Shown here: in pieces, positions 3,548-56,120 of the stretch
How positions within the stretch are numbered: the stretch's first letter is position 1
Layout of the letters: every line of letters begins with the position of its first letter
NCBI RefSeq assembly: GCF_002854065.1
Contig: NZ_CP024154.1
Strand: one strand, 5' to 3'
DNA from: Escherichia coli
Lineage (GTDB): Bacteria; Pseudomonadota; Gammaproteobacteria; Enterobacterales; Enterobacteriaceae
Length of the DNA: 64,000 bases
Notes under the pieces: model-generated
The model's database searches: none
Seen by the model: the letters and a program-made list of their open reading frames with translations, nothing else
Told to the model about the DNA's origin: nothing
Translations under genes and position numbers: made by a program

Positions 3548-3619
3548 TGACGCTGGCGGGGAAAAATCTCCGCCTTTTCCAGCCGGTCCCCGGAAAGAGC
3601 AAAAGGATGTCGCCGCAGG

Positions 3620-3945
3620 CTCCGCTTTACCCGGCCATGCGGGGCATGGCCTTGTGGGTTTTCAGTTATGTGGCCTCAGCGCCGTGTGCGGGCTGTGCCG
3701 TGCCTCCATCGTAGCCGGGCTTCTGCGGGCGGGTTGCAAGGTAAGGTGAACCGCTGCGGTCACCCGGTCCCTCCTTCCCGTCTGCCGTGATTTTCCGGTC
3801 GTTCACCCGCTCAGATTTCGCGGTCTCACCCTTCAACTCCCGTCAGCCGTGCGCGTCAGGCTGCGGCTTCCCTTGCGCCCTTGCAACCCTGCAGGCCCGG
3901 CAAAGATGGAGGCACGGCACCGCCCGGTGTCGCGGAATATGTGAA
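3620..3945 (+). repeat. repeat family A copy 1: about 330-bp hairpin-rich element, putative single-strand promoter (Frpo/ssi-like)
   Basis: About 95 percent identical to 10567-10892; contains perfect hairpin GGCCATGC-GGG-GCATGGCC; ends about 20 nt before the klcA start. Confidence 0.6.
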
Positions 3946-3962
3946 CAACGGAGGAAAACATC

Positions 3963-4388
3963 ATGCAATATGCGAAACCTGTCACTCTGAACGTTGAAGA
4001 GTGCGACCGTCTGTCTTTTCTGCCTTACCTGTTTGGCCTGGATTTTCTGTATGCCGAAGCGTCTGTATACGCGCTGGCGAAAAAAATGATGCCGGAATAT
4101 GAAGGCGGATTCTGGCACTTCATCCGCCTGCCGGACGGTGGCGGTTACATGATGCCGGATGGCGACCGTTTCCACATGGTGAACGGTGCAAACTGGTTTG
4201 ACCGTACCGTGAGTGCTGATGCCGCAGGCATCATCCTTACCTCCCTTGTGATTAACCGCCAGTTGTGGCTGTACCACGACAGCGGGGATGCAGGGTTGAC
4301 ACACCTGTACAGGATGCGTGATGCGCAGTTGTGGAGCCACATCGAATTTCACCCCGAATGCAACGCGATTTACGCGGCACTTGACTGA
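3963..4388 (+). CDS. klcA: anti-restriction protein, KlcA/ArdB family
   Basis: 141-aa protein with KlcA/ArdB-like sequence and size; SD GGAGGA upstream; leading-region context. Confidence 0.75.
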
Positions 4389-5248: not shown

Positions 5249-5745
5249 CTTCGGCTCCCGGCTGCCTGGCGGCATCCGGTCGTCAGGCCCGACTCCGACG
5301 GGCAGCTGCTGGCGCACCCGCCAGTCTCCGCCGAACCCGCTGGCGCGGTTTCGGGCTGCCGCTACGGTCCGATGCGTGAAAACCCGGCTTGCAGCGACCG
5401 TTCCGGTCGCGCCGCCCCTGTCGCGCCGTGACCTGCGCTCCCTGCACACCTGACGGTGTGTGAGGAAACTGCGCCTGATGGCGCAGCAGTCCTCCCTCCT
5501 GCCGCCACTCCTGCGGCCTGTTTCCCGCTGTGGACTTTCCGGGGGGCAGACGTAACCCCCTCCCGTTCCATCTGTCCAGGGTGAGATGCACCGGCCACAA
5601 AATTTTTAGCCATGAACCCGGCAAAAAATTTTGCGTCCGCCCCCGGACAGCTGCCCCGTGAGGCGGTAAACGGGCCCCCATCGGAAAGGTCCACTGCGGG
5701 GAGAAACCCCTGTGAAGTGGACGGCAGGAGGAGCTTTCGCTCCTC
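5249..5745 (+). repeat. repeat family B copy 1: about 500-bp hairpin-rich element, putative single-strand promoter/ssi
   Basis: Near-identical to 11592-12090 and partially to 14681-15010; multiple perfect hairpins (GCGACCG-TTC-CGGTCGC, ACACC-TGAC-GGTGT); ends about 70 nt before ssb. Confidence 0.6.
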
Positions 5746-23208: not shown

Positions 23209-24313
23209 TGTGATACTCCTCGCTATCTGTTGCTTTCAGGAAGAGGCGAACGGAAGTGGCGTCTTTCAGGATGCCGGACGGCAGGTGCCAGCCGGTATCT
23301 GATAACACCCAGGGGGTTCCGCCAAAACCGAACTGGCGGAAAGCCTGGTTATTGACATCGATGGCAGCACGTGCGGCGGTCAGACACTGTCCATCCTGTG
23401 CGGCCGGTGCATCGCCGGTGGGGGCCATACCACTGTCAGCGGAATACAGCTGATGCCATCCGGTCGCCCGTTTTTGTGAGTCCGGTTCACACAGCAGCGG
23501 AGCAGTCCGCTTTGTACTGGACTCCCCGCCAATCACGGAGACCGGATAAATCACCACGCTGAATTCCCGGGCCAGTTGCTTAAGCGCGGGTTCCAGCAGA
23601 CGGCAGTTGATGCATGCGGGGTCAAGGAAGGCGTACAGCGTGCGTTCATGACCAGTGGACAGGTTAATGGTGAACATCCCCCGGTCTGCGTTGCGTTTAA
23701 GTACTGTGGCCAGATTACGGCGGGCCTCAGCGGCCTGAACGTGTTGTTCTTCCGTCACTGCCGTCGGGGCGGGGGCAGAAGAAGGTTCCTGCTGTGTGGG
23801 AGCCGGGCGGGCCGGGATGCTGTTAACATGATGTTCCGTATGTGGGCGTGGTGTCTCTGTGTCGGTTACTGGTTCAGCTCTCCATTCCTGAGATGTAGGG
23901 TAAGCCAGCGTGGAAGGGGACTCTGCCTTCATCCAGTGGTAACCTGCAACTGTCGCCGGCAGAGCAATTCCGGCGATAAAGCCACACATCAGTGTCCGCC
24001 AGAAGCCATTTTTCCGGGAGGGATGTTTTCCTTTTCCGGCATATTCGGCATCCAGGCAGGCATCAATCGCTGAGAGCATTCTGCCGATGTGATGTCCGGG
24101 ACGTTCTGCATCAACGGTATCAACAAGCACCGTTTCAGTTATTTCGCGAAAAGGGGAACTGAAGGACAGGTGCATCAGCCTGTTATTACGGTTAATCAGT
24201 GCGCCCAGTTCTGTTACCGGCAGGATGGCAATCACCTCCCGATTACCGTCAGGGTACAGGGCGGTCAGGGACAGGTGTTTATTATTCAGTGTTGCAGTGT
24301 AGTGGATGGTCAT
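23189..24313 (-). CDS. trbB: TrbB-like thioredoxin-fold disulfide isomerase
   Basis: CxxC motif (DPACINCRLLEP) in C-terminal half; Pro/Thr-rich linker; trbA-trbB-trbC order. Confidence 0.7.
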   Translation of the reverse strand: MTIHYTATLNNKHLSLTALYPDGNREVIAILPVTELGALINRNNRLMHLSFSSPFREITETVLVDTVDAERPGHHIGRMLSAIDACLDAEYAGKGKHPSRKNGFWRTLMCGFIAGIALPATVAGYHWMKAESPSTLAYPTSQEWRAEPVTDTETPRPHTEHHVNSIPARPAPTQQEPSSAPAPTAVTEEQHVQAAEARRNLATVLKRNADRGMFTINLSTGHERTLYAFLDPACINCRLLEPALKQLAREFSVVIYPVSVIGGESSTKRTAPLLCEPDSQKRATGWHQLYSADSGMAPTGDAPAAQDGQCLTAARAAIDVNNQAFRQFGFGGTPWVLSDTGWHLPSGILKDATSVRLFLKATDSEEYHNEPAPR

Positions 24314-25635
24314 TGTTCTTTTTCCTTGTCGGCGGGATGCTGTTTTTCGGTGGTTTCGGTGGTTTCGGTGGTTTCGGTGGTTTCGGTGGTTTCGGTGGTT
24401 TCGGTGGTTTCGGTGGTTTCACCAGTGTCAGTGTCTTCGTCGTTATCATGGCGGCGGGGTATCACGTCATCCGTGAGTGACCAGCGGGTCCTGATCTGAC
24501 GTTTACGATCGCGATCTGGCTGAGGTTCGTCCCATATCAGGCCCAGCCCCAGCATGTCCCGTCGAAGCCCTTCAATGGCCTCTTCCACACAGGGTTCCGG
24601 GCAGGGGAGGCCGAGACGGCTGGCTTCATTTTCTGCCCGGGCAACGGCCACCACGCCGGCCCCTTCGATGAAGCCTTTTGTGGTGTTTGCCCGGTGAAGG
24701 GCATAGAAGAGCGTCCGGTCAACGCCCTTGAGCCACAGCCAGTTGGGGGGCGTCAGGCGCAAATCATGTGCGTAAAGCCAGACAAGACCGCTGCGAACGT
24801 AACGGTGCTGCCTGAGCCACTGTTGTGCGTCTTCTGTTTTTATGACCCGGATAAAGGCGTTTCTGGCCAGTGAATACACTGGCGTGCTGAAACGCCCCTG
24901 GTCCCGCTTGCTTTTGAGTCTGCAGGAGAGGTTGAGGTTATTCATCAGGGAAACAGCCGATTTCCGGTCCCCAAGGAAGAACTGCAGGCCAAAGACGGCA
25001 AAGAGTGCTTTTTCATGTGGAGCCATGTCTTTCCAGGTGGTCAGAGGCTGGCCCAGTTGCGCCATAAAGCACTGGCGCGTGGCCGCAACATCGAGCTGCA
25101 TGTTGCGGATAAGGTTGTTCTGCTCCACAAAGGCTTCGGGGGTTAGAGCGACACGGCGCTCGGGACGTTTTTGTCCGTGGAAGAGTCTGTTGCTGTCTCC
25201 GTCAGCCAGAACGGGGGCGATCGCCGGTGACAGTGATGAAAACAGATGTGGCAGCGTGTGGATATTCAGTGGTCTGCGGGTGAAGCGGGGCTGGGCCGGA
25301 TGCTGAAACCACATCCACAGAAAGCCGATCGTCATGGGAAGCAGAATCAGCCAGAGGATCCCCACGGTCTGTGACATGACATCCAGCCACTGGCTGAAAG
25401 TGATCGTTGCAGCGTTGTTGGCGGTGTTGGCCAGCAGGTTATAACGGGGGGCGGCAAAATGGTGAAAAGGCCCCCAGTCAGTCATCCCCCACATTGTGTG
25501 CAGGATCAGGCAGGTGGCAAAGACGATGTCGGGTAAAAAGAGCCAGATGAGAAGCGCAAAGAGCAGACATATGGTGCCAACGATATACCATATGTTCATC
25601 GGGTCTTCTGTTGTGGGGGAGTGTTGGTAAGACAC
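24310..25635 (-). CDS. trbA: TrbA-like membrane protein with C-terminal (TET)n repeat
   Basis: 441-aa ORF with N-terminal TM segments; identity assigned by position upstream of trbB; 9-bp in-frame tandem repeat at 24349-24420. Confidence 0.6.
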   Translation of the reverse strand: MSYQHSPTTEDPMNIWYIVGTICLLFALLIWLFLPDIVFATCLILHTMWGMTDWGPFHHFAAPRYNLLANTANNAATITFSQWLDVMSQTVGILWLILLPMTIGFLWMWFQHPAQPRFTRRPLNIHTLPHLFSSLSPAIAPVLADGDSNRLFHGQKRPERRVALTPEAFVEQNNLIRNMQLDVAATRQCFMAQLGQPLTTWKDMAPHEKALFAVFGLQFFLGDRKSAVSLMNNLNLSCRLKSKRDQGRFSTPVYSLARNAFIRVIKTEDAQQWLRQHRYVRSGLVWLYAHDLRLTPPNWLWLKGVDRTLFYALHRANTTKGFIEGAGVVAVARAENEASRLGLPCPEPCVEEAIEGLRRDMLGLGLIWDEPQPDRDRKRQIRTRWSLTDDVIPRRHDNDEDTDTGETTETTETTETTETTETTETTETTEKQHPADKEKEQ

Positions 25636-25779
25636 GAGGATTCCTCCATCGATAAATAGATAAATTTCGGGATGAGGCTGAGTGGAATTAATGCGAACAA
25701 TCGCCGGTAATGACCGGGCAGGGCTGAATTCAGCAGGGCATTTTCACAGGAACAGCAGAAGGTGGTGAGAGACAGGCAC

Positions 25780-25810
25780 AAAAAAGCCGACTGGTGAGGC
25801 CGGCTTTTTT
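25780..25810. terminator. bidirectional rho-independent terminator-like hairpin (copy 1 of a duplicated element)
   Basis: AAAAAAGCCG-ACTGGTGAG-GCCGGCTTTTTT. Confidence 0.5.
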
Positions 25811-26083
25811 GCGATCCCAGGGAGAGTGGGTGGCTCTGGCCCGGAGGAAGTCTCTTTTCAACTAACGTTACCAGAATATCGTTATATTCACCTGATCGCA
25901 ATCTGTTCGTTACAGTCTATTGTTCCGGGAGTAGCGATATCGCCTGAAACAAGTATAATCAGCAAGTTAGCCTTGTCTGGAGACTTACCTTCGCATCAAT
26001 CCATTTGCCGTATTTTCGTAAAATTCAACAGGAAATATTCAACGGGAGTGAGAGAACTGCTGTCCGGGGAGGAGGTACAGACG

Positions 26084-26117
26084 CAAAAAAACCGACTGGT
26101 GAGGCCGGTTTTTTTGC
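26084..26117. terminator. bidirectional terminator-like hairpin (copy 2)
   Basis: AAAAAAACCG-ACTGGTGAG-GCCGGTTTTTTT, nearly identical to copy 1. Confidence 0.5.
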
Positions 26118-26431
26118 GATTCCGGATCGAAGTTGGTAGCCCTGACCGGAAGATAACTGCCTATAACTGACTATGAAATAATACGGCTGAAATAATATTT
26201 CTGCAAGCACAGTATAAGTATATACTCGGTGTGTCAGCTTTGAGGCACGTTCTTTCCGGCATATCGTTCACCGGGATGAACAGGTTGCAAGTCCTGGCCA
26301 AAACATCAGGTGGTGCTGGTTTTGGTGCTCTGGCCGGAGAAGAACTGTCTATAACTGACACTATAGAAAACGTGGCGACAGGCAATGTAAGGGCAAACCA
26401 CGGTGTTCTTTCTCCATTGATGGAGAAGCGG

Positions 26432-26527
26432 ATGATTAACCTGTTAATCATCGTTCTCAGGGCGGTTGTTGCTGTGGCTAACGCAGTGATAGCTCTCCTG
26501 GAACTGATCCGGGAACTGGTTGACTGA
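26432..26527 (+). CDS. small hydrophobic peptide (31 aa), candidate type I toxin-like membrane peptide
   Basis: SD GGAGAA 5 nt upstream of ATG 26432; MINLLIIVLRAVVAVANAVIALLELIRELVD; hairpin terminator downstream. Confidence 0.35.
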   Translation: MINLLIIVLRAVVAVANAVIALLELIRELVD

Positions 26528-26546: not shown

Positions 26547-26577
26547 AAGGGCAGAGGGTCACCGCCTTCTGCCCTTT
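26547..26577. terminator. bidirectional hairpin between convergent small ORFs
   Basis: GGGCAGA-N12-TCTGCCC followed by T-run. Confidence 0.5.
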
Positions 26578-26589
26578 AACAAAATATGC

Positions 26590-26766
26590 TCAGGTTAAAA
26601 ATCGAAAACCTTCCTGCACTTCCTGTGCCTGTTCCCGTGAGTCAAACATGAGCCGGCTTTTACCCGGAACTCCCCAGGAAATATATTCTACATCCACCCA
26701 CCATTTTCCGTATTCTTCATACGGTCCGGATATCACTTTAGTGACAAATGCATCAACCAGGTTCAT
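26590..26766 (-). CDS. hypothetical small protein (58 aa) downstream of the nuclease gene
   Basis: SD AAAGGTG upstream of ATG; MNLVDAFVTKVISGPYEEYGKWWVDVEY...; below the ORF-track size cutoff. Confidence 0.35.
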   Translation of the reverse strand: MNLVDAFVTKVISGPYEEYGKWWVDVEYISWGVPGKSRLMFDSREQAQEVQEGFRFLT

Positions 26767-26915
26767 TTTTACACCTTTCTGTTATTCTGCTTATTACGAC
26801 CAGCAGACAGCAAATATTAAAAATAACGCGGCGGTAAAAATGGCAATTTTTTCCATGCTGTATTTTTGCCATTTATTTTCTTTGAAATGGTTTTTTTCTT
26901 CATATCAGCAAATAA

Positions 26916-27383
26916 TTATTTCTTATTCTGTTTTCTCCAGGTCCATGGTGGTACCGGATTTTTATCTGCCCATAATCCCCGCTTCAGGGCGCGGGCATCA
27001 CGCTGGAGCGGCGGGAGAGTATAGTCATTATTGTAGTCCGGGTACACCCAGGCAGCGCCGTTACGGACCTGCCAGCGATTTGCTTCTGTGCCGTCAGCGG
27101 TATAGACCCGGCCGAGAATACGGCCATACCTGTCTGTCTGCGCGTATTGCACGGTTACGGGCTTTCCGGCCACCAGGTCCTTCAGCTGAGTGGCTGACCA
27201 GCGTCCAAAGGGCTGTTTCTTTTCCGGTGCATCAATATTAGCCAGACGGACCCTGACAGGCTTTTTGTCCTGTAATATTTCCAGCGTATCACCATCAAGA
27301 ACGCGGATGACGTGCCCCTGAATCTGTGCGGCACAGAGAGAAGCGGAAAAAATAATGGTGAGTGAAAAGATATATTTTATCAT
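26916..27383 (-). CDS. secreted thermonuclease (staphylococcal nuclease-like) family protein
   Basis: Signal peptide; SNase-like motifs (VIRVLDGDTLEI, RLANIDAPE, YGRILGRVY). Confidence 0.8.
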   Translation of the reverse strand: MIKYIFSLTIIFSASLCAAQIQGHVIRVLDGDTLEILQDKKPVRVRLANIDAPEKKQPFGRWSATQLKDLVAGKPVTVQYAQTDRYGRILGRVYTADGTEANRWQVRNGAAWVYPDYNNDYTLPPLQRDARALKRGLWADKNPVPPWTWRKQNKK

Positions 27384-27484: not shown

Positions 27485-28165
27485 ATGAATTCCAGTACGC
27501 TGATATCCGTGATGATACGGCAACAGATATCCGGTGACGGTATGCAGGAACATATTGATTATCAGATTGAGAAATATCAGTTCAGGGCCAGGAATGAGTC
27601 ACCGCGACTGATGCGCCAGTGGGAAGATGTCATGCGTGAATGCCGTGATACCGGAGCAGGAGCCAGGGAGCGGCTGCGGATTGCCTTACTTAATGTTGAT
27701 TATGTGACCAGTTTTGAACTGCCGTTTCGTCTGCTGTTAACCCGGACACCGCAGATGATTGACAGCGTGCGGCGGGAATGGCAGCTCAGCCAGAAAAAAG
27801 TCGTATTCAATGAGCGGCAGCGGGGATGTGTATACAGTCTGCAGAATGACTTATCCGGCGTGCCGGATAGCTTCAGTTACAGTCTTGCGACGCGAATACG
27901 GCGGGTGGACAGCTATGGCATGACGACGCGTTGTTTCACTGATATAGCCGGGCAGGTTAAAGCCCCGACAGCACGGCTGAAACTGGCGCTGGAAAGCGGG
28001 TTAATTGTCACCGCGCTGGATGGTCTGTTCTGGCTTGGTATTCAACGTATTGCCGCAGATGTGCAGCGGCTGCGTCAGTCCGGAATGACAATCATCACCC
28101 GGGATGTTGAGGTCTCAGACTCGCTGACCGGAACCACACGGGTTGTTTCCGGGTACAGCCTTTGA
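27485..28165 (+). CDS. hypothetical protein (up to 226 aa), possible DNA-binding protein
   Basis: ORF; several candidate starts; C-terminal region resembles a winged-helix fold by composition only. Confidence 0.4.
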   Translation: MNSSTLISVMIRQQISGDGMQEHIDYQIEKYQFRARNESPRLMRQWEDVMRECRDTGAGARERLRIALLNVDYVTSFELPFRLLLTRTPQMIDSVRREWQLSQKKVVFNERQRGCVYSLQNDLSGVPDSFSYSLATRIRRVDSYGMTTRCFTDIAGQVKAPTARLKLALESGLIVTALDGLFWLGIQRIAADVQRLRQSGMTIITRDVEVSDSLTGTTRVVSGYSL

Positions 28166-54917: not shown

Positions 54918-56120
54918 TCAGAAGGTGAACTGTAACTGAGCAATGGCACCGTAGTTGTTGTCGGTGCCCACGAGGCCGGCGACATCAATGTGAATCACAT
55001 CAAACGGTGAGAGCCCAATCCCGGCAGTGAATGCACTGCCGTTGTTGCTGGCCAGATTCTGGCGGTAACCGGTACGTAACTGTGCCCATTTCCAGGCATT
55101 AAACTCAGCACCTACGGCGGCAAACTGACGTTTGCTGTCTGATGTGAAGCCGCTGGCCGGGGTCAGATCCACATCCAGTGCCGTGGTGAACATGTCGTTG
55201 TGCCATGATACGCCGGTTGTTACCTGCGGACGGATCCTGAAGGTTTCAGTGACACCATGTACCTCTTTGGTCTCAATGCTGCGTGGGATCAGGTTCTGTG
55301 CGACCAGACCCAGCGTCCAGTTGTCATCCAGGTCCATGCTGGCACCGATATCAGCGTTAATACCGTTTTGGGTGTTGTGGTAACGGTCACCTTTGAATGC
55401 GCTGCTGTCATAGTTTTTGATCAGCGTATTGTAGTTAAACAGGTCAACACGCTGGAATTTTGGTGTGAAGCCCAGTGACCATTTTTGTCCGGCCGTTTCC
55501 AGTTCAGTGGCCAGCGCAACGCCCACATCGGTGATCAGTGCGGCACGGGCAAAAGCCTGTGAGGTCAGTCTGTTTTTATCCACATCCTGGCTGCCACTGT
55601 CTGCAATGCTTTCCAGATAGTTCAGGTCGGCATCGCTGACTTTACCGTCGACGCTGACAGTCCCGAGCGTTTTCAGCATCAGTGCAGCAGCGAGGGTATC
55701 ACCGGGAAGGGCCGCCACAGCAGATACCCCGGCCTGTGCGCTGGCATGGGTGTTCCGGAAGTCCTGCAGTCTCTCTTTCAGGCGGGCCGCTGTCTGCGGT
55801 ACCCCGGAGTGGCTGTCGACGGCACGGTCGAAGGCTTTCCAGTCATCGCTGATTTTGTCGGCGTTGTCGGCGATATTACCCGGATCGGACAGCTGCGCAC
55901 CCACGGACGGAAGCAGAAGACTGAAGTCATCTTTTGCACCGGATTTTGTCAGCAGTGCCGGGTTTGCCAGTGGGGCCACACCATAGTGAGAGGAGGCAAC
56001 CCCCGTTCCTCCCATCGCATCATTGCGGGCTTCAAAATATGACGTTGCTGCAGTCGAATTAAAGGAAAATAAAACGGCAGACGCGATGAGAGTACGGGTA
56101 ATATGCTTTTTCATCATCAT
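54918..56120 (-). CDS. outer-membrane beta-barrel protein (TraF/TraG-like by position)
   Basis: Signal peptide; C-terminal aromatic residue (QLQFTF) typical of outer-membrane proteins. Confidence 0.55.
   Translation of the reverse strand: MMMKKHITRTLIASAVLFSFNSTAATSYFEARNDAMGGTGVASSHYGVAPLANPALLTKSGAKDDFSLLLPSVGAQLSDPGNIADNADKISDDWKAFDRAVDSHSGVPQTAARLKERLQDFRNTHASAQAGVSAVAALPGDTLAAALMLKTLGTVSVDGKVSDADLNYLESIADSGSQDVDKNRLTSQAFARAALITDVGVALATELETAGQKWSLGFTPKFQRVDLFNYNTLIKNYDSSAFKGDRYHNTQNGINADIGASMDLDDNWTLGLVAQNLIPRSIETKEVHGVTETFRIRPQVTTGVSWHNDMFTTALDVDLTPASGFTSDSKRQFAAVGAEFNAWKWAQLRTGYRQNLASNNGSAFTAGIGLSPFDVIHIDVAGLVGTDNNYGAIAQLQFTF

Follow-up and report, generated by a model that had tools for sequence, protein, structure and literature searches.

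Small acidic proteins encoded beside basic secreted nucleases, on the same strand, are familiar from barnase and barstar, from the colicin DNases with their Im proteins and from NucA with NuiA. In a preliminary description of the plasmid stretch discussed here, a secreted thermonuclease gene and the short reading frame that follows it were likened to such nuclease-inhibitor pairs. The nuclease belongs to the staphylococcal nuclease (SNase) family (Pfam PF00565), with which it shares the full-length domain, the catalytic and Ca2+-binding residues and a predicted N-terminal export signal, the member considered here being plasmid-borne in Enterobacteriaceae. We know of no protein inhibitor of SNase. 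The staphylococcal enzyme is exported unfolded and needs millimolar Ca2+. As for the plasmid nuclease, its nearest characterised plasmid relative is presumably ParB of RP4/RK2, which we take to be a Ca2+-dependent SNase homologue. ParB, also a plasmid-encoded nuclease, belongs to the parCBA multimer-resolution operon and has been entered as 'Nuclease' (PMC7314908). Unlike in that operon, no resolvase or parC adjoins the nuclease described here, which has as neighbours a winged-helix (wHTH) gene and the short reading frame of 58 codons. E. coli strains engineered for periplasmic export of staphylococcal nuclease exist, and the abstract presenting them mentions no inhibitor (PMC5674116). On its other side, the short reading frame faces a relative of agrB/dqlB, a system that experiments on pOXA-48 established as a type I addiction module (PMC12365149).

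The window, that is, the whole stretch of 64,000 nucleotides that was analysed, represents a conjugative IncI-complex plasmid of the IncK2/Z type. Between 26300 and 27700 it shows 100% identity to E. coli plasmids that were typed IncK2/Z and have a MOBP relaxase and MPF_I transfer genes. The nuclease gene and the 58-aa ORF sit in a variable accessory stretch extending from trbA to excA, where the following features are found:

24310-25635, minus strand: trbA (longest ORF; the PGAP start may differ)
25778-25865, minus strand: second AgrB-like copy, agrA-like (RF02891, 37.4 bits, E 4e-4, just under the Rfam threshold; repeat D1)
26083-26170, minus strand: AgrB antisense RNA, the antitoxin of dqlB (Rfam RF02891, 47.7 bits against a gathering score of 40)
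26432-26527, plus strand: dqlB, a 31-aa DinQ-like type I toxin (NCBIfam NF041473, 63.7 bits against a cut-off of 35; RefSeq annotation)
26547-26576, no strand assigned: GC-rich hairpin between the convergent 58-aa ORF and dqlB (fold -23.3 kcal/mol, z -1.83)
26590-26766, minus strand: 58-aa gene, a phrog_8110 protein with a predicted OB fold (Shine-Dalgarno sequence AAGGTG at 26772-26777)
26767-26915, minus strand: AT-rich spacer from the nuclease gene to the 58-aa ORF (149 nt, GC 0.35)
26916-27383, minus strand: SNase-family (thermonuclease) gene, 155 aa (PF00565; RefSeq WP_000598962.1)
27327-27383, minus strand: predicted Sec signal peptide, nuclease aa 1-19 (inspection of the N-terminus)
27542-28165, plus strand: winged-helix (HTH_39) gene, divergent from the nuclease gene (PF14090, E 8e-6; WP_001155252.1)

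Beyond the winged-helix gene come several small hypothetical genes, then hok/pnd and excA. The winged-helix protein is a possible local regulator. RefSeq already annotates the identical nuclease (WP_000598962.1) and the small protein (WP_001054907.1) in identical plasmids; hundreds of these plasmids already have both of these ordinary genes annotated, and published transposon screens cover the locus.

The presence of a signal-bearing nuclease of the SNase family at 26916-27383 (minus strand), put forward in the preliminary description, is well founded. The protein matches the Pfam SNase model over its entire length (profile positions 1-107 of 107; 78.5 bits for a cut-off of 21; E 6.5e-22). The catalytic residues, on which the assignment depended, are in place: the alignment pairs D21, R35, D40, E43, R87 and Y85 of SNase, which act in catalysis or Ca2+ binding, with D32, R46, D51, E54, R88 and Y86. 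Residue T41 corresponds to A52; in staphylococcal nuclease this threonine is a ligand through its backbone. Identity to S. aureus nuclease A is only 32% (alignment row), and the plasmid enzyme differs from it by lacking the loop that matches SNase residues 45-50 and by having a conserved C-terminal PVPPWxWR tail. Judged by inspection only, the N-terminus, MIKYIFSLTIIFSASLCAA followed by QIQG, resembles a signal peptide, with an n-h-c pattern that reads MIK, then YIFSLTIIFSASL, then CAA ahead of the Q. Four plasmid homologues have the same active-site motifs, each with a signal-like N-terminus, equivalent N-termini being present in the homologues of IncX3, IncF and IncI2 plasmids; because the IncI2 homologue is devoid of the Cys, a lipoprotein is argued against. 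Once processed, the protein would be 136 aa long and basic (pI 10.0). With the NCBIfam equivalogs NucI and EcnA its scores stay below cut-off, and PADLOC returns a generic SNc-domain match only. All this is consistent with a Sec-exported enzyme of the staphylococcal nuclease type, which would be Ca2+-dependent, non-specific and located in the periplasm or outside the cell; we infer both activity and location from homology. Effects of the nuclease on exclusion or biofilm behaviour, raised in the preliminary description, are conjecture.

Genes of this nuclease family are very common among the accessory genes of enterobacterial plasmids: homologues occur in no fewer than 5000 plasmid records, and 6280 protein clusters match at E<=1e-10. 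In IncX3 plasmids the homologue is flanked by a small hypothetical gene and by an ATPase gene with topB; in IncF (pO157) it lies between the gene for an ANR regulator and hha; in IncI2 it precedes a PcfJ-domain gene. The 58-aa ORF is absent from the four other SNase plasmid contexts considered, which belong to IncX3, IncF and IncI2 plasmids. A name may mislead here. Related conjugative plasmids, R64 (IncI1) as well as pOXA-48 and pCTX-M3 (IncL/M), carry a gene of the same name, 'Nuc', the product of which is of the phospholipase D (PLD) family, unrelated to the SNase nuclease in both fold and family. The nuc gene of R64, located between traK and sogS, was considered as an SNase and rejected as PLD family; the 'Nuc' of pOXA-48 and pCTX-M3 was likewise rejected as a homologue, its record being of the PLD family. 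The pOXA-48 gene, which comes after parM/parR, is annotated as phospholipase D family, as is the gene beside sog in R621a and pHUSEC2011-1. The nuc gene of the IncN plasmid pKM101 is presumably of the PLD family too. In pOXA-48, Nuc had no effect on stability (PMC12365149), a result that is inapplicable to the SNase nuclease because the pOXA-48 protein is of the PLD family.

As to the co-oriented ORF of 58 codons with its own Shine-Dalgarno sequence (26590-26766, minus strand), the earlier proposal stands as well: AAGGTG lies 5 nt before the ATG. The same proposal hinged on conservation of the small ORF, and conserved it is, as witnessed by its substitution pattern, its 181 relatives and its match to phrog_8110. 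Compared with the alleles of two IncI-gamma/K1-typed plasmids (R621a and pHUSEC2011-1), the third codon position accounts for 26 of the 37 nucleotide differences, with a dN/dS of 0.044-0.048. In an exhaustive HMMER scan of 1.84 billion proteins, 181 cluster representatives reach E<=0.001, and nearly all of them are 56-62 residues long. The match to phrog_8110 (E 2.2e-18) runs end to end, residues 1-57 facing profile positions 1-58 of 59, and the same profile is matched by all 72 aligned relatives (72/72), the plasmid copies forming a tight IncI-complex subgroup within it. The family pattern reads MNLxDxxVTxVxxxPYxxYGKWWVxVxY...G....LMFxTxEEAxxVxxGYxFL. The family is without a Pfam model, none of its 72 members matching Pfam beyond chance; NCBIfam and PADLOC have no match for the 58-aa ORF, and the fusion proteins that bear the domain (P0171, P0202 and P0181) carry no informative Pfam domains. 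The 58-aa ORF is a genuine gene, beyond a chance ORF.

Its product is a cytoplasmic, single-domain protein, with neither signal peptide nor membrane segment. AlphaFold2 predicts, with a mean pLDDT of 92.9, a minimal OB-fold barrel, in which three long strands are followed by a short helix and a last strand; the model displays the five-stranded beta-barrel, the helix between strands 3 and 4 and the OB structural matches expected of this fold. Foldseek comparison with the PDB supports the OB fold, the closest folds being the RNA-binding OB proteins eS28, IF1 and eIF1A. Among viral models, uncharacterised proteins from Vibrio phage ICP1 and from Klebsiella and Bacillus phages come out with nearly the same fold (TM ~0.9), ORF214 of ICP1 being one of these structural twins in unrelated phages. 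Llp of phage T5, which came up as a PDB relative in a sequence search with the family profile, was not significant (E ~0.5). The protein is acidic (pI 4.65), as is its family, with a median pI of 5.0 and 76% of the members net negative.

Conservation of the two genes as a pair across plasmids, proposed as a check in the preliminary description, fails. Searched by tblastn, the 58-aa ORF is found in 1813 plasmid records (345 at >=95% identity and 1412 at 80-90%), whereas the block comprising nuclease, ORF, dqlB and HTH gene is restricted to 368 records, a figure that agrees with the 371 records holding the nuclease at >=90% identity. The winged-helix gene is present in every record of this block. 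Two plasmids with the majority (80-90%) allele of the ORF, R621a and pHUSEC2011-1, both typed IncI-gamma/K1, were read whole: both contain the 58-aa ORF and dqlB, and neither has an SNase homologue at E<=0.01. Upstream of the ORF these two have a HEAT-repeat gene or hha, beside excA, and the order excA, then hha or HEAT, then ORF, then dqlB is that of majority-allele plasmids in a spread sample of a 1682-record search. The family also extends to phages, including Pseudomonas, Aeromonas, crAss-like and Bacteroides phages: with a 14-sequence alignment of the family as query, 45 phage or prophage loci with homologues were collected, and none has an SNase gene within 4 kb. Only in the IncB/O/K/Z lineage are the nuclease gene and the 58-aa ORF always adjacent, 149 nt apart on one strand. 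Their adjacency is an accident of one plasmid lineage. A nuclease and HTH cassette would have come to lie beside a pre-existing unit made of the small ORF and dqlB.

This distribution bears directly on the view that the two genes form an immunity pair, where a cytoplasmic small protein would neutralise the nuclease before export or regulate its activity. An acidic small protein next to a basic mature nuclease displays the charge pattern typical of nuclease inhibitors, the genes are co-oriented with no strong terminator between them, and the arrangement is constant within the IncB/O/K/Z lineage, over about 345-371 records. Yet none of these points is specific, the linkage is confined to that single lineage, and alleles with and without a nuclease neighbour reveal no adaptive change (dN/dS 0.04, with conservative substitutions). 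Genetics speaks more directly. Plasmid pMS7163B encodes the identical nuclease (gene 600) and small ORF (gene 610), with dqlB and the HTH gene. In its TraDIS input library, gene 600 has an insertion density (Log2MPM) of 12.91 and gene 610 one of 12.74, both at the level of neutral genes and to be compared with 7.58 for parA, 7.82 for parB and 0.98 for repA (PMC10286972, S1 Table A). A gene required for withstanding the nuclease would be poor in insertions; those in gene 610, in a plasmid where the nuclease is intact, are as frequent as in neutral genes and fully tolerated, so survival in the presence of the nuclease does not depend on the small gene. Conjugation requires neither of the two genes, and surface conjugation was not lowered by insertions in the nuclease gene (Log2FC +2.20, inside the spread of +1 to +2 shown by resistance genes) (PMC10286972). 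The nuclease is dispensable for plasmid maintenance and surface conjugation. A structural argument goes the same way: when both proteins were joined as nuclease-(GGGGS)6-ORF, with an alignment built from chimeric rows that kept the diversity of both halves, AlphaFold2 folded each domain at pLDDT >90, left the linker below 50 and gave a pTM of 0.57, which, in what is a weak test made without PAE, means that the domains are placed without confidence and that there is no confident interface. An essential immunity role of the 58-aa protein is largely refuted by the TraDIS data; a non-essential, modulatory interaction may be compatible with these data and with the distribution. Taken as a whole, we hold the immunity pair to be highly improbable.

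The resemblance to a nuclease-inhibitor pair is not borne out, given the uncoupled distribution of the genes, the other neighbours of SNase genes, the tolerated insertions in the ORF and the pTM of the fused model. Measured against barnase-barstar, colicin DNase-Im and NucA-NuiA, the present genes are without conserved linkage, the small one proves dispensable beside an intact nuclease, and modelling predicts no interface. Our preferred reading, to which we give a probability of roughly 0.78, is that of two functionally independent accessory genes, one for an exported SNase-type nuclease, the other for a mini-OB protein that binds another cytoplasmic partner. The partner of the 58-aa protein would be some protein or single-stranded nucleic acid other than the nuclease. 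It would be a cytoplasmic small binding protein of mobile elements, a binding activity that we infer; the identities, folds, distributions and dispensability of the two are shown by the data.

Because the gap between the two genes is without convincing terminator, co-transcription is possible, and the nuclease gene and the 58-aa ORF may share a transcript in the IncB/O/K/Z lineage; the spacer (26767-26915) shows no significant fold (z = -0.48). In addition to its own ribosome-binding site, the 58-aa gene probably has a promoter of its own; promoter scans found no consensus promoter for it in either lineage. The roughly 100 nt nearest the ORF have a homologous counterpart upstream of the ORF in R621a and pHUSEC2011-1, and this homology breaks off at about the nuclease stop codon (alignment A1), which makes the nuclease and HTH cassette a lineage-specific neighbour. 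At its other end, the ORF is separated from dqlB by the hairpin at 26547-26576, which probably serves both genes as a terminator working in either direction. As read from alignment A1, the R621a and pHUSEC2011-1 alleles preserve this stem, with one pair changed in a compensatory way from A-T to G-C.

The constant neighbour of the 58-aa ORF in the plasmids examined is the convergent agrB/dqlB type I toxin-antitoxin module. The ORF and dqlB converge at a distance of ~62 nt, with a hairpin between them, for the IncK/B/O/Z allele and in IncI-gamma/K1-typed plasmids alike. The module has what defines an agrB/dqlB system, namely a toxin peptide, an AgrB RNA and complementarity in the 5' UTR: on the AgrB side, 26139-26171 repeats 26327-26359 of the dqlB 5' UTR over 33 nt at 82% identity (direct repeat D2), the predicted pairing region. 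The likeness to the system of pOXA-48 lies in components recognised at the profile level and in the pairing repeat, 33 nt long here and 35 nt there; unlike it, the module here has two AgrB-like copies. A second dqlB copy, annotated in NZ_CP024254.1, is absent from the window.

With such a neighbour, the 58-aa protein might work together with agrB/dqlB, either as an RNA-binding modulator of the dqlB mRNA or of AgrB, or through convergent transcription of its gene limiting dqlB. The arrangement of ORF and dqlB was kept while hok/pnd, finQ, hha and the nuclease gene were rearranged around it, and a degenerate duplicate in NZ_CP024254.1 holds dqlB along with the 3' part of the ORF. In transposon sequencing of pESBL, hp28, just upstream of the ORF homologue, and hha were both called required for maintenance, without an explanation being given, the homologue itself (Hp27, 80960-81136) scoring 0.57 as neutral, 0.42 for maintenance and 0.01 for transfer (PMC4288162). 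The folds closest to the model, as seen above, are those of RNA-binding OB proteins. Against this stands the net acidity of 76% of the family, unusual for an RNA binder. The depletion in pESBL may reflect occlusion by H-NS of an AT-rich region. Insertions in the ORF are tolerated in pMS7163B, and the three annotated phage loci examined have no dqlB-like neighbour. Moreover, agrB and dqlB cloned from pOXA-48 suffice as a two-component system, and mining of PLSDB places dqlB in nearly all IncL/M plasmids and about half of the IncX plasmids (PMC12365149), whereas tblastn finds the ORF in only 49 Klebsiella records. The 58-aa ORF and agrB/dqlB each occur without the other, and their linkage is not obligate; because IncI-complex plasmids all share ancestry, it counts approximately as one event. 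A role of the 58-aa protein within the toxin-antitoxin module is, in our opinion, quite unlikely.

Still another role would make the 58-aa protein a negative modulator of conjugation or establishment, a binder directed at the host or at the element and independent of both neighbours. After conjugation of pMS7163B, no gene of the plasmid has a higher Log2FC than gene 610 (+4.69, FDR 0), but the TraDIS authors excluded gene 610 because a single insertion site gave >30% of its reads (PMC10286972, S1 Fig E), the mark of a jackpot or of a pre-existing bias. In the same data drift takes many neutral genes to values of +1 to +3, and a mini-Tn5 promoter reading out towards trbABC could give the same enrichment. 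The region does hold other modulators of transfer (finQ, excA and hha); the gene, however, lies outside the leading region, where anti-defence genes cluster, and its pESBL homologue has a transfer probability of a mere 0.01 (PMC4288162). The main text of the paper on pESBL RNA-seq in early conjugation mentions no hha, excA, pnd, dinQ or toxin. Phages offer a further hint in favour of this role, since homologues of the 58-aa protein are found there among small early or accessory genes, often near an integrase gene, and its structural twins, ICP1 ORF214 included, belong to unrelated phages. Many phage early proteins are small binding proteins directed at the host or the element. Guilt by association was tried on the phage loci and set aside, as the recurrent neighbours (phrog_25176, 1273, 9129 and 5439, plus integrase) give no functional hint. 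Negative modulation of conjugation or establishment by the 58-aa protein is, all in all, unlikely.

Beyond the preferred reading of two independent accessory genes, one may ask what would follow if the mini-OB protein were a new kind of regulator common to phages and IncI-complex plasmids, restraining transfer or tuning agrB/dqlB. We see little chance that this is so. If it were, restraint of transfer by the 58-aa protein would explain the largest TraDIS enrichment of pMS7163B (+4.69), and tuning of agrB/dqlB would explain the persistent linkage together with the 'essential' hha-hp28 region of pESBL. What remains as a curiosity, a conserved mini-OB family with a published TraDIS signal that was discarded, is a lead rather than a finding. 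To be sure, IncI-complex plasmids rank among the main vehicles of ESBL and AmpC resistance genes, and for this reason their accessory genes merit correct labels. The nuclease and the 58-aa ORF should be neither annotated nor studied as a pair akin to toxin and immunity protein, and the SNase-type gene has to be kept apart from the PLD-type 'nuc' of R64, pOXA-48 and pKM101. As for the 58-aa protein, it is strongly conserved and structurally well defined, and it is present in some 1800 sequenced resistance plasmids as well as in diverse phages.

The 58-aa ORF (26590-26766, minus strand) is convergent with dqlB, a DinQ-like type I toxin gene, and the two recur side by side in NZ_CP024254.1 (L001). 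This plasmid, otherwise near-identical to that of the window, carries at 5307-5693 an additional dqlB together with the 3' part of the ORF (approximately 83% identity), the ORF remnant being truncated. The extra copy is missing from the window, the corresponding junction falling near window position 26005. The toxin gene and the ORF 3' end were duplicated or recombined together in NZ_CP024254.1, as one unit. In the window, the type I toxin-antitoxin module agrB/dqlB is complete (25778-26527), and its two AgrB-like RNA genes and dqlB have a layout similar to that of the chromosomal agrA-agrB-dinQ locus.

The features of the window considered here are:
24310-24400, minus strand, 3' end of trbA, with a repeat tract (TrbA ORF with a DotM_C domain)
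25778-25865, minus strand, AgrB-like RNA gene 2 (Rfam score slightly under threshold)
26083-26170, minus strand, AgrB-like RNA gene 1 (Rfam score above threshold)
26139-26171 and 26327-26359, 33-nt AgrB/5'UTR repeat, predicted to pair
27542-28165, plus strand, winged-helix (HTH_39) gene, divergent from the nuclease gene

The eight perfect Thr-Glu-Thr/Thr-Thr-Glu repeats that end TrbA (TETTETTETTETTETTETTETTETTE) imply a 9-nt tandem repeat in trbA, which could vary in length.

In the published TraDIS of pMS7163B, the small ORF (55080..55256 there) had the highest post-conjugation Log2FC among all genes of the plasmid, +4.69 (PMC10286972, S1 Table A), an enrichment that the authors removed as a single-site jackpot (S1 Fig E). 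In pESBL, Tn-seq scored plasmid maintenance as requiring hha and a short 'hp28' stretch, with no explanation offered (PMC4288162). This stretch lies directly upstream of the small-ORF homologue, and the upstream region as a whole spans pESBL 81133-81528, equivalent to about 3609-4004 of the compared locus L006. H-NS might be occluding AT-rich DNA there; alternatively, the small ORF or dqlB might be affected.

The winged-helix gene, separated from the nuclease gene by an AT-rich spacer of 158 nt, accompanies it in every case within this plasmid lineage and may regulate it; its Log2FC in pMS7163B was +2.94 (PMC10286972). The product of the gene long called nuc in IncI1/I-gamma and IncL/M plasmids (L007, 18503-19054; L059, 20116-20667) belongs to the phospholipase D family and has no relationship to the window's SNase-type nuclease. 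The common name creates a risk of wrong annotation transfer between the two kinds of gene.
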